From: a virus
Reading direction: 5' to 3' (one strand)
IMG/VR virus record: IMGVR_UViG_3300039310_000050
Coordinates: 37,634 to 101,633 of that record
Length of the DNA stretch: 64,000 bases
The notes beneath the pieces were generated by a model. It had not been told where the DNA came from. It did not search any database and saw only the letters and a program-made list of their open reading frames with translations. Below, piece by piece: positions 1 to 37,659 of this stretch. Numbering within the stretch: the first letter of the stretch is position 1; every line of letters starts with the position of its first letter. Position numbers and translations under genes: made by a program.

Positions 1-763
1 GAAATTCATTACTATATGGAAGTTTATCATTTCGGATACAATCATTAATATACAATTGGAATAAATCATTAGATCCTAAAGTAGCTAATGCAGTTTTAGA
101 AATATCAATTGCTCTATGACGTAATGAAGAAATTGCAGTTTCAATTTTTCCCCAATCTCCGGGAGCTATCATTTCTTCTTCTGGAAGTTCTGGTTCAAAA
201 CAATAAATTTGTTCTTGAAATGCATTTTCTGGAGCATTTGCTCCAAAATTAGCTTCCATATCTTTTATTTTATTTCCAGTATATGTGGTATGAAATACAC
301 AACCAATTTGACAAGACCGTATATATTTCGAAATTATGAAATGATGAGGAATTTTATAATTTAAAGTATTTGGTTGAAATGAAATTTCACCACCTGTGCG
401 GTACTTTGTCCAAAGAACATCTCCTTGAATAATTTGTGGAATATCACAATACCATAATCTATCATAAAGTTCCATTAAAGTAATTTGAAGTCCTTTTGAT
501 TCATGGTTTTCTAAAATATCAGCATGACAATAATTTATTTTCCCTGAAAATACACTTTTTGTTCCTACAAAAAATCTTTGATTTTCAGGATTTTTCCCAC
601 AAATAAAAGCCGGAGCACCATCCCATTTAACTGATATTCTGGTATTAGAAGTGTTTATACCACATAAAAAGTGATATACTTGTTCCAAAATATTCAATGG
701 AATAAATGGATCAGCTTTTGTAAAACATAAATCTTCTACATGCTGCAAATGAATATTCTTCAT
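1..763 (-). CDS. Conserved T4-like phage protein (DUF6267-like), runs off window start
   Basis: Manual translation from ATG 763: MKNIHLQHVEDL...SVKWDGAPAFICG...FFVGTKSVF...QGDVLW...FQPNTLNY; frame appears open to base 1; absent from the ORF track, consistent with no stop in the window. Confidence 0.75.
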   Translation of the reverse strand, partial: MKNIHLQHVEDLCFTKADPFIPLNILEQVYHFLCGINTSNTRISVKWDGAPAFICGKNPENQRFFVGTKSVFSGKINYCHADILENHESKGLQITLMELYDRLWYCDIPQIIQGDVLWTKYRTGGEISFQPNTLNYKIPHHFIISKYIRSCQIGCVFHTTYTGNKIKDMEANFGANAPENAFQEQIYCFEPELPEEEMIAPGDWGKIETAISSLRHRAIDISKTALATLGSNDLFQLYINDCIRNDKLPYSNEF

Positions 764-4651: not shown

Positions 4652-5235
4652 TTACTACACCTCGCAAGTCTTGCACGCCAATTAATACGGCATTTCTCCA
4701 TATCGTGGCGGTTTTCTTGGATTATTTTATCTTTTTGGTGTTCTGATATTGATGGAGCCAACGGGCCGAATAATTTATAGGACTTCTCAATAGGAAACTT
4801 TTTGAGATATAAACCATCGTCAGCATCTACAATATATTTTTTAGCAGCATCTTTATTTACCAGAATACCACACTGTTCCTCAAGTACCATAATAAATTGG
4901 GAATAGTCTTCAGGCAAAACATTGTAATGATTATTCCCACGGAACTTCATTAACTGGATTCCCTTAATACATTCTCTCCAACCAGTCTTACCATATAAAG
5001 CATGAGAACTGTATTTCACTTCAACATATAAATCAAATTTAGGAACATAAAGATCTCGTCCTTGTTCATCTTTAAACTGGATCTTTCCGTTACTAAAATC
5101 AGCAATACTATGTTCTAATTCATCTGCTTTCAGGAAATGACCTTTATTGGTATTATAGATCAATGGATCTAATGTATAATTGTTATTCACATACATCTGC
5201 CAATTTACACCCTTCTCAATATAATTTTCCACCAT
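4648..5235 (-). CDS. Putative PD-(D/E)XK nuclease
   Basis: E...GRDL...YVEVKY spacing typical of the PD-(D/E)XK fold. Confidence 0.45.
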   Translation of the reverse strand: MVENYIEKGVNWQMYVNNNYTLDPLIYNTNKGHFLKADELEHSIADFSNGKIQFKDEQGRDLYVPKFDLYVEVKYSSHALYGKTGWRECIKGIQLMKFRGNNHYNVLPEDYSQFIMVLEEQCGILVNKDAAKKYIVDADDGLYLKKFPIEKSYKLFGPLAPSISEHQKDKIIQENRHDMEKCRINWRARLARCSK

Positions 5236-5282
5236 GTCATATCATAGGTCACATTAGACATTATATAGGCACCTTTCACAAT

Positions 5283-5918: not shown

Positions 5919-6665
5919 CTACTTGAAGAATTTGTCTATATCTATAGGTTTATCCTTAATGGCTTGTTTTATGCGTTTATCGGCACCAATATAAATTTTC
6001 TTATCCTTCTCTATACCTGTAAATTTTCTATTGGTATTCACACACGCGACGCCAGTAGTACCAGATCCCATACAACAATCTAATACCATATCACCAGGAT
6101 TTGAATATGTGTTAATTAAATATTCCATTAAGGCCACGGGTTTTTGAGTTGGGTGTAATCCACGATCTTGTGAAAATTCTAAAACTGATATGGGATATCT
6201 GGTTCCTTCATTATCAATAGGAGTTTCTTTAGTTTGTTTTATTGATCCCGCTTCCCCACCAGAACGCTTACTATTCCATTTATATGGTTTTCCTTCTCTC
6301 ATTTGAGGATTATATGTCGGTTGTTTATCATAAAATACCACAACATCTTCGTGGCACTTCATTGGCATATATTTGGCTTGATATGGACTTGTACCATTAG
6401 GTTTTTGCCAAACTAAACAATATTTAAACCATTTCAAATTACTATTGATAAGCGTAGTTGTAAAAGGTTGTTGTGCTGTAAAAACATATGCCGCATTTGA
6501 CTTGGCTACTAATTTCAATTCTTTCCACAATTTATCCAAAGGTAAAATAGAATCCCAAGGACATGCAGTTGTACCATATGGAAGATCAATCAAAACCAAA
6601 TCCACAGAATGTTTTTCTATTTTGGTAAAACTTTTAAAACAATCTTCGTTATATAATGTGCCCAT
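5919..6665 (-). CDS. DNA N6-adenine/N4-cytosine methyltransferase, beta class
   Basis: Motif IV DLPY precedes HPTQKP and motif I DCCMGSGTTG; start moved to MGTLYNEDC. Confidence 0.92.
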   Translation of the reverse strand: MGTLYNEDCFKSFTKIEKHSVDLVLIDLPYGTTACPWDSILPLDKLWKELKLVAKSNAAYVFTAQQPFTTTLINSNLKWFKYCLVWQKPNGTSPYQAKYMPMKCHEDVVVFYDKQPTYNPQMREGKPYKWNSKRSGGEAGSIKQTKETPIDNEGTRYPISVLEFSQDRGLHPTQKPVALMEYLINTYSNPGDMVLDCCMGSGTTGVACVNTNRKFTGIEKDKKIYIGADKRIKQAIKDKPIDIDKFFK

Positions 6666-20884: not shown

Positions 20885-22069
20885 TTACATATCCTTCTTA
20901 TCCCGAAATCCAAGTGCCCTTGGAAACCTTGGAATACCATCTGCTGTTAAATTTTGAAATGCTACTTTCACCAACTTACCAATATATTTCTTTCCATCTC
21001 GGTAATATTCTTCACGTTTTGCCGCCGATGCTTTAGGTGTAGCTTTAAATCTCTTATGATCTTTTGTTTCACAAATCCAAATGGCTGAATTAGCCATTTT
21101 ACCAACACCATGTTCGAAATCAACTACCTTATATTCTGCATCTTGGAAAGATTTTACTTTTTGAATATCGCTTGATCGGTGGCCAAATAAATATTCACCA
21201 TCCCAATTACGGACAATACATCCTTCATATCCTTGTTCCACAAATGTTTTTTCAAAATCAAAAATTTCATCATATTCATATGTAGGTTGTAAACATGCAC
21301 TACAAACTCCTGCATAATATTTTGGTAATTTAACTACTTGATTTACAATATAAGTTGGTACTAAAACCAAATATGCACTTTCATATTTTGGACTAGTAGG
21401 GTTTAATTTATGAAAAAATGCTTCAAGATTTTTCAAGCGATTCTTCCAAATATCACGTTTCCCCAATTCATTAATTGGCATATCAAATACATGATATTCT
21501 AATTGTTCTGTTTCACCTTCATGATATTTCTTTGCCCATGAAGTAAGAGATTCAAAATCAACTCCATGAACATATAATTCACCATCCAGAACCATTTCTT
21601 GTGGCATTACTTTTTCAAGTTCTTCAATAATATGTTTAGGAGCCGTCCATTCTTTACCACCGCGAGTCCCTAATACTACACGGCCATCTTCCCAATATGC
21701 CATTGCACGAACACCATCCAATTTTGGTTGGAGGTCACATGGATAAACGATTCCGCGGCCTTTCTTTTTATGAAAATCGTGTGCCAACATAGGTAAAAAG
21801 ATTTCTTCTTTAGCACCTTCTTTAGTTTCAGAATATTTTCGTTCCCGTTTAAAAGTCCACATTGCTTGAGCTTCCAAAATTGCTTGTTCTTCCGCAGTTG
21901 TGGCATTTGCTTTACCAAAATTTTTTGGAGTAGCTTTTTTGGGTGAAAGTTGTAATTTACCACCAATTTGTCCATGGCGGGTAATAATAGTATCACCTTC
22001 TGTCCAAATATCCCATTGAACTAAAGCTCCCGTTTTACTTTTATGATATAATGTTGGAAATGTTTTCAT
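20885..22069 (-). CDS. ATP-dependent DNA ligase with a 21-aa insertion
   Basis: PMLA, QPKLDGVR, LDGELY, YHVFD, GYEGCIVR, KVK, GIPRFP; start set to MKTFPTLY. Confidence 0.93.
   Translation of the reverse strand: MKTFPTLYHKSKTGALVQWDIWTEGDTIITRHGQIGGKLQLSPKKATPKNFGKANATTAEEQAILEAQAMWTFKRERKYSETKEGAKEEIFLPMLAHDFHKKKGRGIVYPCDLQPKLDGVRAMAYWEDGRVVLGTRGGKEWTAPKHIIEELEKVMPQEMVLDGELYVHGVDFESLTSWAKKYHEGETEQLEYHVFDMPINELGKRDIWKNRLKNLEAFFHKLNPTSPKYESAYLVLVPTYIVNQVVKLPKYYAGVCSACLQPTYEYDEIFDFEKTFVEQGYEGCIVRNWDGEYLFGHRSSDIQKVKSFQDAEYKVVDFEHGVGKMANSAIWICETKDHKRFKATPKASAAKREEYYRDGKKYIGKLVKVAFQNLTADGIPRFPRALGFRDKKDM
21278..21342. repeat. Exact 65-bp direct repeat, copy 1 (in DNA ligase)
   Basis: Identical to 34445-34509. 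Confidence 0.95.
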
Positions 22070-22070
22070 T

Positions 22071-22256
22071 TTAAAATCCTTGTGAACGGTCATATGCAGC
22101 TTCCGCTTGAGCGGCCTTTTTTTCCGACCAATTAACCTCAGCATCAAGGAAAACATTATACTGTTCATTTTCAGGCAAATCGTAAAAATCTACACCAAAA
22201 CGTTCTTCAGCAAGACGTTCTGCTTCCATTTGAATTTCATATTTATAGTCTGACAT
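22071..22256 (-). CDS. Small acidic early protein
   Basis: GAGG SD downstream of a consensus promoter. Confidence 0.65.
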   Translation of the reverse strand: MSDYKYEIQMEAERLAEERFGVDFYDLPENEQYNVFLDAEVNWSEKKAAQAEAAYDRSQGF

Positions 22257-22273
22257 ATTCAACCTCAATTACA

Positions 22274-22302
22274 ATTATAGCGTATGTAAGGCCGCTTGTC
22301 AA
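22274..22302 (-). promoter_or_regulatory. Consensus sigma70 promoter
   Basis: TTGACA-17-TATAAT. Confidence 0.85.
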
Positions 22303-22314
22303 GTGATTTTTAAA

Positions 22315-22417
22315 GACGCCTAGTGGATTCTTTGCTCACGCGAAAGAACCCTGTAAGGAGGCGAGATGATCTTGCTCAAGGACCATCTTCTTGTGGTATG
22401 CTAGGCGTACCCATACC
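22315..22417 (-). ncRNA. Candidate three-way-junction ncRNA 3' of tRNA-Thr
   Basis: ACGCCTAG/CTAGGCGT closing stem; two 8-9 bp hairpins with G-U pairs on the minus strand; GUGA tetraloop; CCUCCUUA linker. Confidence 0.7.
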
Positions 22418-22421
22418 AAAC

Positions 22422-22498
22422 TGGAGCCGCGGGGGAGAATCGAACTCCCTCTCTGTTGATTACAGGTCAACCGCTTTCCCGGATTAAGCTACCGTGGC
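22422..22498 (-). tRNA. tRNA-Thr(UGU), C33
   Basis: GCC acceptor start, loop CC-TGT-AA, CCA. Confidence 0.9.
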
Positions 22499-22570
22499 TA
22501 ATAACTTTTTCCTTTTATTTTAAAAATAAATCTCCTTCCCTTACCTTTTGTATTTAAAGATCCGAAATTA

Positions 22571-24587: not shown

Positions 24588-24595
24588 TTCTAATT

Positions 24596-24673
24596 TGGAC
24601 CACCAGGAGGGACTTGAACCCTCTAAGACCAGTTTTGCAGACCTAGCGCCTCGACCACCTCGGCATCTAGTGA
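24596..24673 (-). tRNA. tRNA-Cys(GCA), bulged anticodon stem
   Basis: Loop CT-GCA-AA, U73, CCA. Confidence 0.75.
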
Positions 24674-31079: not shown

Positions 31080-31108
31080 ATTATATCATACCTCAATATT
31101 TTTGTCAA
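31080..31108 (-). promoter_or_regulatory. Consensus sigma70 promoter
   Basis: TTGACA-17-TATAAT. Confidence 0.85.
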
Positions 31109-34397: not shown

Positions 34398-34684
34398 TAT
34401 GTAACCACCACTTTCAATTTAGTTCCTTGATTTTGTCCTTGATAATATGTAGGTTGTAAACATGCACTACAAACTCCTGCATAATATTTTGGTAATTTAA
34501 CTACTTGATCTGATTGAATTAAATCAAGGAACTTCTTTACACTAAAGGGATATGTTTTACGTTTTTCTTTATTTTCTGGTTCACTGGTATCAATTGCCAA
34601 AAATTGAGCCATTTTACGTTTCTGACCACAAAATTGGCAATGTAAAGTTGTATTTTTTCTTTTAGTAGATTTAGCCATTTTCAA
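34397..34684 (-). CDS. Small Zn-finger protein
   Basis: CQFC...CSAC. Confidence 0.65.
   Translation of the reverse strand: MKMAKSTKRKNTTLHCQFCGQKRKMAQFLAIDTSEPENKEKRKTYPFSVKKFLDLIQSDQVVKLPKYYAGVCSACLQPTYYQGQNQGTKLKVVVT
34445..34509. repeat. Exact 65-bp direct repeat, copy 2 (probable donor)
   Basis: Identical to 21278-21342. Confidence 0.95.
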
Positions 34685-37613: not shown

Positions 37614-37659
37614 GTACCCTATTTAATGAATCTTGTTAAAAAACGCGGACATTATAAAA

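Follow-up and report, generated by a model that had tools for sequence, protein, structure and literature searches.

The stretch of viral DNA analyzed here (the window, 64,000 nucleotides, positions 37,634 to 101,633 of IMG/VR record IMGVR_UViG_3300039310_000050) carries, directly behind a tRNA-Thr gene on its minus strand, an element of about 100 nt that is very probably a conserved structured RNA and not a chance fold. The element, which represents a previously uncatalogued RNA family, is predicted to form a pseudoknot that holds two hairpins and, between them, a single-stranded linker with the heptamer CCUCCUU, the sequence of the anti-Shine-Dalgarno (anti-SD) tail at the 3' end of 16S rRNA. 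The case against chance rests on homologues in three phage contigs, in which the helices are kept by compensatory changes while the linker and the hairpin apexes are unchanged. Pairing of the linker in trans with Shine-Dalgarno (SD) sequences is put forward tentatively as the most likely role. An earlier note on this DNA had drawn attention to the element, and its interpretation as a whole is partly supported by the present analysis.

Architecture of the element

Past the encoded CCA of the tRNA-Thr, which ends at position 22422, the minus strand continues with a spacer of 4 nt (GUUU) and then with the element at 22316-22417, in agreement with the placement in the earlier note. Closing stem, two hairpins, G-U pairs, unpaired C's, apexes and linker were all found as that note had listed them. 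In 5' to 3' order the parts are as follows.

22412-22417, minus strand: 5' strand of P1, GGUAUG, one half of the helix that the earlier note called a rival; pairs with 22395-22400 and covaries in homologues
22409-22411, minus strand: pseudoknot loop 1, GGU, with GG kept in all six copies
22401-22408, minus strand: 5' strand of the pseudoknot stem (stem 2), ACGCCUAG; pairs with 22316-22323, with changes on both sides in four of seven pairs
22395-22400, minus strand: 3' strand of P1, CAUACC; pairs with GGUAUG
22364-22388, minus strand: hairpin 1, with a variable 7-bp stem that includes one G-U pair, a bulged C (22381), invariant CUU/AAG and a GAGC loop (22374-22377)
22352-22363, minus strand: single-stranded linker CGCCUCCUUACA, with the heptamer CCUCCUU at 22355-22361
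22325-22351, minus strand: hairpin 2, with a variable 9-bp stem that includes one G-U pair, an unpaired C, invariant GC/GC and a GUGA tetraloop (22336-22339) of the GNRA type
22316-22323, minus strand: 3' strand of the pseudoknot stem, CUAGGCGU, which pairs with ACGCCUAG and closes the RNA

The junction is made up of the strands CAUACCACAAGA, CGCCUCCUUACA and A, and ACGCCUAG sits within the hairpin loop of P1, where it abuts the 3' strand of that helix. GGUAUG/CAUACC had been taken as a competitor of the closing stem, and hence as the sign of a switch. The helix itself is present and covaries, and the minimum-energy fold of 103 nt adopts it and not the closing stem, while a slightly longer piece folds into the three-way junction. 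The switch did not hold up, since P1 and the closing stem share no nucleotides and, as both covary, they would coexist in a pseudoknot. The predicted fold is of the H type, with a loop 1 of 2-4 nt, no loop 2, and a loop 3 composed of the hairpins and the linker. Folding energy by itself says little about the element (z-score of -2.6 on the minus strand versus -2.5 on the plus strand).

Homologues and their distribution

Homologues were sought by alignment of the neighbouring ligase against metagenome and viral contigs and by pattern scans built from the first homologue. The core set (n=4) consists of the window and three further sequences.

L012, positions 1947-2036: core member on a 175-kb ENA contig
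L086, positions 2711-2808: core member in a complete 176.8-kb phage with terminal repeats
L088, positions 5151-5248: core member in a 97-kb record

L005 is an identical copy of the window, and L007 (the same sequence as L008 and L014) holds two divergent copies, which form the divergent set (n=2). The covariance model with the correct structure (R2; in the earlier model, R1, two helices were off by one column) scored the four core members at 78-95 bits and placed both L007 copies (E = 0.004 and 0.034) exactly at the coordinates that had earlier been found by eye. Each of the three phage records that were searched whole, those of the window, L086 and L088, contains a single copy. The carriers form a clade of large myoviruses whose major head protein is of the T4 type and which come from samples of peat, soil and wetland, and the ligases next to the elements of L012, L086 and L088 are 45-58% identical to that of the window. 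DNA bearing the element was present in contigs of four runs (2014-2025; soil, wetland and peat), with the element unchanged in all of them and no informative within-population variation, and a ligase identical to that of the window was present in 20 contigs.

Wider scans added no convincing members. A blastn search of the region against 50,697 phage records and the first pattern scan of viral contigs yielded no match. The three-motif pattern matched viral contigs four times, twice truly (L086 and L088) and twice by chance, and in 596 Gb of bacterial and archaeal genomes it gave 69 matches, about the number expected by chance, all of which scored at most 18 bits with R1. A pattern based on P1 and the pseudoknot gave 78 matches in viral contigs, none above 17 bits, and those with a P1-like helix lay in GC-rich, mostly coding sequence. 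The pattern combining hairpin 1 and the linker returned 64 stretches, namely L086, L088 and 62 new loci, none of them convincing, and the neighbour proteins P0001 and P0003 as queries recovered no related loci. With four core and two divergent sequences after viral, metagenome and genome scans, the family is small; because the pattern scans require exact motifs, distant members will have been missed.

Covariation, functional strand and conserved blocks

The helices are fully complementary in all six copies even though the sequences of the stems are almost wholly different. A manual count across these copies comprised 159 pairs (154 Watson-Crick, five G-U and no mismatches). In the alignment guided by the covariance model 92% of cells were paired versus 76% after shuffling, with none of 500 shuffles reaching 92%, and 15 of the 24 pairs were altered on both sides; when the partners were shifted by one to three columns, pairing fell to 30-48%. 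The supposed rival helix P1 takes the forms GAUG/CAUC, UGCG/CGCA, UGGUGG/CCACCA and UUGGAAYG/CRUUCCAA in homologues.

The five G-U pairs also identify the functional strand. As the earlier note had observed for the G-U pairs of the two hairpins in the window, those found across the six copies are valid on the tRNA strand only: all five become C-A mismatches if the plus strand is read, and no A-C occurs in the opposite direction, so the functional strand is that of the tRNAs. The minus-strand reading likewise fits the direction of the neighbouring genes and the intrinsic terminators of L012 and L086, which lie on that strand. The earlier note had offered as an alternative a plus-strand mini-open reading frame (ORF) that would form a sense/antisense pair with the RNA; the plus strand would then be the functional one, with AAGGAGG as an SD sequence ahead of a start codon. 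The arrangement TAAGGAGG-4 nt-ATG and the ORF MILLKDHLLVVC are indeed present in the window, and all four core members retain AAGGAGG with TTG-CTC-AAG 7-10 nt behind it. This conservation, however, is automatic, as these sequences are the complement of the invariant linker and the hairpin 1 apex, and the 12-aa peptide is conserved neither in its ATG, which is absent elsewhere, nor in its sequence, as the peptides have no more than LLK in common and vary in length. Since in addition the G-U pairs would be lost, the genes and tRNAs around the element all lie on the minus strand with no plus-strand gene nearby, and a clear promoter on the plus strand was not observed in its vicinity, the chance that the plus strand is the functional one is very slight.

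Three blocks are invariant among the four core members. The apex of hairpin 1, CUUGAGCAAG, consists of an unpaired pyrimidine followed by CUU/AAG closing the GAGC loop, that of hairpin 2, GCGUGAGC, of GC/GC around GUGA, and the linker retains CCUCCUU while the stems on either side of it differ almost completely. In the predicted fold the anti-SD linker is the most conserved unpaired part of the element, and the lack of linker conservation that the earlier note had named as speaking against its proposal was thus not found. The base after the heptamer is A in three core members and U in L088, the linker of which reads CACCUCCUUU, and the divergent L007 copies retain CCUCC and CCUCU. The mean predicted probability that CCUCCUU is unpaired was 0.47-0.90 with the pseudoknot ignored, and exceeded the average of each RNA. 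As a rough estimate, the chance that one of about 15 conserved unpaired heptamer positions equals one of three ACCUCCUUA heptamers is a few in a thousand.

Comparison with known RNA families

At gathering score Rfam 15 reported nothing but tRNAs in the window, and at E<=10 the interval 22200-22560 gave only tRNA and two chance matches of about 13 bits; on the homologue loci no Rfam match fell on the element. A published description of such an RNA was not found in the literature, and the proposal of an undescribed structured RNA was borne out in this respect. Several individual candidates were also rejected. The element is seen as a tRNA or tRNA-like structure neither by ARAGORN nor by the Rfam tRNA model, no intrinsic terminator was called at 22300-22420 on the minus strand, where the tail of the element reads CUUUAAAAA, and the CUGANGA and GAAA core strands of the hammerhead are absent from the junction, which no hammerhead model matched. 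The sequence upstream of the L088 copy, considered as a tRNA-like handle, folds no better than shuffled sequence (z = 0.3-0.6).

The position next to a tRNA raised the question of whether the element is a cis-acting device, such as a novel self-cleaving ribozyme, by which the upstream tRNA acquires its mature 3' end. HDV-like theta ribozymes adjoin gut-phage tRNAs and have been proposed to mature their 3' ends (PMC10879173), which provides a precedent, and like the element they are pseudoknotted and lie within a few nt of a phage tRNA 3' end. Four of the six copies of the element begin 1-6 nt past a CCA (three at 4-6 nt from tRNA-Thr, and the minimal copy L007b at 1 nt from a tRNA-like cloverleaf that lacks an anticodon loop), and the fold is a compact pseudoknot with invariant unpaired bases and a GNRA loop. 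Theta ribozymes, however, are built as a nested P1-P2-P3-P1.1-P4 with a catalytic C starting J4/2, whereas the strands of the element follow the order P1 5', loop, stem-2 5', P1 3', hairpins, stem-2 3'. It has no P1.1 and no P3 or L3 (0 nt between stem 2 and P1' in all six copies), no J4/2 is definable in the absence of an HDV fold, and no match to HDV, hammerhead, twister, pistol or hatchet was obtained at E<=10. Furthermore, only one of at least 16 tRNAs has an element, and in contrast to theta ribozymes it occurs once per genome and two copies are not adjacent to a tRNA, that of L086 beginning 7 nt after an ORF stop codon and that of L088 lying about 260 nt from a tRNA. A ribozyme or other tRNA-maturing device is therefore improbable.

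Phage T4 produces two stable RNAs from its tRNA region, RNAC (species 1) and RNAD (species 2), whose role is unknown (PMC3014915, PMC9697503). Like the element, they share their strand with the tRNA cluster and come immediately after its final tRNA, with RNAD beginning 1-2 nt after tRNA-Arg much as the element begins just past tRNA-Thr, and they are structured RNAs of about 120-140 nt compared with about 100 nt here. Homology was not detected, as R2 at E<=5 had no match in the tRNA region of T4 (L176) and R1 with filters off reached at most 7.5 bits there. The T4 RNAs also lack the P1/loop pseudoknot of the element, and RNAC has a tRNA-like T-arm. In RNAD (L176 2554-2672, minus strand) the sequence CCCUCUUACA resembles the window linker CCUCCUUACA, but in the predicted fold it is paired with the SD-like GAGUAAGG and not displayed as in the element; without homology at the level of the covariance model this likeness may be a coincidence. 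The element would thus be a second, unrelated family in the same genomic niche, with a readable clue to its role in the form of an invariant, probably exposed copy of the anti-SD sequence. Even without an anti-SD role, the family would enlarge the set of uncatalogued RNAs among phage tRNA genes by a pseudoknot fold with good support.

Genomic setting and transcription-unit boundaries

The window is part of a 101.6-kb virus record with an estimated completeness of 56% and a G+C content of about 32%, which encodes a T4-type major head protein, tail sheath and tail tube. According to ARAGORN the record has 16 tRNA genes, all of them on the minus strand like the element, which would be the last component of a tRNA-containing early transcript. 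It is flanked by two features.

22422-22498, minus strand: tRNA-Thr(UGU) with encoded CCA, called by ARAGORN and scored at 57 bits by the Rfam tRNA model
22274-22302, minus strand: sigma-70-type promoter TTGACA-17-TATAAT, a perfect match (12 of 12 positions)

The promoter lies 13 bases past the element and opens a unit that codes for a 61-aa ORF and an ATP-dependent DNA ligase; because it begins the next transcription unit, it sets the downstream limit of the element. The loci share a common order: the element comes after tRNA-Thr, in some cases with an ORF between the two, and ahead of a strong early promoter, in some cases with a terminator intervening; small ORFs (one to three) and then the ligase complete the arrangement. 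Between tRNA-Asp and tRNA-Thr lies a spacer of 72 nt (22499-22570, minus strand) that contains a purine-rich, SD-like sequence, GGGAAGGAGA, with no start codon behind it; this sequence is complementary to the CUCCUU of the element 130 nt downstream and is not conserved in L012.

An attenuator or riboswitch-like device would control whether transcription of the tRNA unit reads through into the ligase operon. The fold is aptamer-like, being a pseudoknot with invariant junction bases, and in L012 and L086 a strong intrinsic terminator on the same strand follows the element directly. No alternative pairing between element and terminator was seen, however, and neither the window nor L007 has a terminator. 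As a strong promoter follows in every case, control of read-through would be largely pointless, and such a device is highly improbable.

The recurrent position raises a further possibility, namely that the element is a purely structural or processing module, such as a nuclease-resistant cap or a transcript-boundary element at the end of the tRNA unit and maybe, jointly with the early promoter, a recombination cassette; CCUCCUU would then serve tertiary contacts and resemble the anti-SD by coincidence. In every case it sits where transcription units meet, immediately ahead of a terminator, a strong early promoter or both, it is present in some and absent from other close relatives, and the GG of loop 1 could pair with the CC of the linker. 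In L007 (103-470, plus strand) the element and the early promoter are tandemly duplicated with near-identical promoter copies, which suggests that the pair moves or duplicates as a cassette in the manner of the promoter-early stem-loop (PeSL) cassettes of T4-type phages (PMC2839356, PMC4122927). The latter likewise combine a structure with a strong early promoter at a module boundary and vary in presence among relatives. PeSL stem-loops, on the other hand, are short, terminator-like and many per genome, while the element is a pseudoknot of about 100 nt with invariant loops and occurs once per genome. A boundary hairpin would have no need for about 25 invariant unpaired or apex nucleotides, the conserved unpaired heptamer would have to equal the 16S tail by chance (a few in a thousand by the rough estimate above), and only one copy is found per record despite the many boundaries in each genome. 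We therefore regard a purely structural module as unlikely.

In L007, positions 302-366 (plus strand) form the cloverleaf mentioned above, which was not called as a tRNA. It has an acceptor stem of 7-8 bp, a T-arm and an encoded CCA, with a GGGG/CCCC stem and tiny loop in place of the anticodon arm. A promoter and a 10-codon ORF lie ahead of it, and the minimal pseudoknot copy begins 1 nt behind it.

Predicted leaderless messages and Shine-Dalgarno usage

The earlier note had supposed that the RNA might favour leaderless phage mRNAs, and, judging by the spacing between promoter and ATG, this phage group seems to translate many of its early genes from such messages. On the minus strand of the window, strong sigma-70-type promoters with -35 hexamers starting at 31108, 17485, 15664, 5917 and 798 are each followed, 4-9 nt after the -10 box, by ATG-led ORFs of 95-254 aa. 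The same distance is 6 nt in L012, L086, L007 (twice), L003, L011 and L015, and 5 nt in L171; so short a distance implies leaderless mRNAs. In a crude set of about 155 ORFs from the whole record, the SD match was at most 3 nt long in 62, 4-5 nt in 80 and 6-7 nt in 13. UAAGGAG, the strongest SD sequence, is found at the genes for the tail sheath, tail tube and major head protein and is the exact complement of CUCCUUA in the linker. A depletion of AAGGAGG in the window (two observed versus 6 +/- 2.3 expected) was not significant.

Proposed role of the element

The abundance of leaderless and SD-poor early genes provides a plausible purpose for an RNA that pairs with SD sequences. We propose that tRNA 3' processing would free the 5' end of the RNA, that coaxial stacking of P1 and the long-range stem would join and stabilize both of its ends, and that the free anti-SD linker would then act in trans by pairing with ribosome-binding sites of the type (U)AAGGAG(G), in competition with 30S subunits. 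Initiation would thereby move from messages with strong SD sequences to early messages that lack an SD or a leader; alternatively, the element could time the late genes with strong SD sequences. Whether in the one form or the other, pairing in trans is a possible role that we hold with reservation, and if true it would mean that a virus acts on translation initiation by RNA and not by protein, with a link to its abundant leaderless early genes.

The proposed mechanism and biogenesis have parallels in bacterial small RNAs (sRNAs). RsaE/RoxS and the loops of RNAIII of S. aureus are C-rich-seed sRNAs that mask the ribosome-binding sites of specific targets with UCCC or CCC in hairpin loops, and the pairing of an exposed pyrimidine motif with the SD is the mechanism proposed here for the element. 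E. coli 3'ETS-leuZ is an RNA derived from a tRNA trailer, and origin from the 3' trailer of a tRNA precursor is likewise the proposed biogenesis of the element. With respect to the seed of SD-masking sRNAs, CCUCCUU is invariant, predicted to be accessible and complementary to SD sequences. Unlike the C-rich-seed sRNAs, the element is phage-encoded and carries the full 16S-tail heptamer in the junction of a closed pseudoknot.

Several observations weigh against a role in SD pairing. With UAAGGAG at the sheath, tube and head genes, the phage's own late genes would be struck by any general masking of SD sequences, a point already raised in the earlier note, which had listed strong SDs as a caveat; the perfect 7-nt match to these genes either speaks seriously against the proposal or suggests that late genes are the targets, in which case the element would be a timing device. 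The gene directly downstream of the element in the window is not leaderless, as it has a 17-nt leader with GAGG. L003, L011, L015 and L171, in which tRNA-Thr leads straight to the promoter, lack the element although their ligases are 45-62% identical to that of the window (58% in the element-bearing L012), and the element is therefore dispensable. Apart from the pairing possible between loop 1 and the linker, CCUC can pair with an internal GAGG in L007a. With four core and two divergent sequences, the invariant nucleotides cannot separate pairing from a tertiary or catalytic role, and no RNA run was among the sequencing runs listed as carrying the stretch.

At the 16S rRNA 3' end helix 45 is followed by the single-stranded tail CCUCCUUA, and the element likewise presents a hairpin and then an unpaired CCUCCUU(A/U). 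It differs from the rRNA in that stem and loop of the hairpin are unlike helix 45 and the motif is internal and not at the 3' terminus; no Rfam small-subunit rRNA (SSU) model matched the element. That the phage makes a free-standing mimic of the 16S 3' tail, in the form of a stable knotted RNA freed from a tRNA precursor and exposing CCUCCUUA to SD sites so that early messages would be favoured or late genes gated, appears to us somewhat doubtful. As a mimic of helix 45 and the tail, the element could instead be a protein decoy that titrates a tail-recognizing protein, for example a toxin or RNase that cuts the anti-SD or the assembly factor Era, which binds GAUCACCUCC. The order of hairpin and CCUCCUU(A/U) is conserved, the L088 linker CACCUCCUUU would suit such a protein, and toxins that remove the anti-SD exist, with MazF-mt11 cutting C|ACCU (PMC12274833). 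The bases 5' of CCUCC vary, however (CG, GG, GA and CA), so that a protein specific for CACCU or AUCACCUCC would miss three of the four members, and neither the hairpin apex, unlike the loop of helix 45, nor the SSU models lend support to the idea. We consider a decoy distinctly unlikely.

Other features of the window and related loci

An exact 65-bp direct repeat (family D5) is present at 21278-21342 and 34445-34509 of the window, with one copy located within the DNA ligase gene. Positions 24594-24623 align with the 3' ends (T-arm and acceptor) of tRNA genes of the window (repeat family D1); no tRNA was called there by ARAGORN or the Rfam tRNA model, and the sequence could be what remains of a tRNA, or else a tRNA-like element. 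Among the related loci, L003 (3850-3937) and L086 (2273-2358) have tRNA-Thr(UGU) genes of 86-88 nt with a long extra arm, an uncommon feature among threonine tRNAs. Part of the L088 tRNA region (6444-6538, minus strand) matches positions 1071-1183 of the bacterial large-subunit rRNA model (29 bits, E 2e-5) and could represent a look-alike of a piece of 23S rRNA that is carried by the phage.

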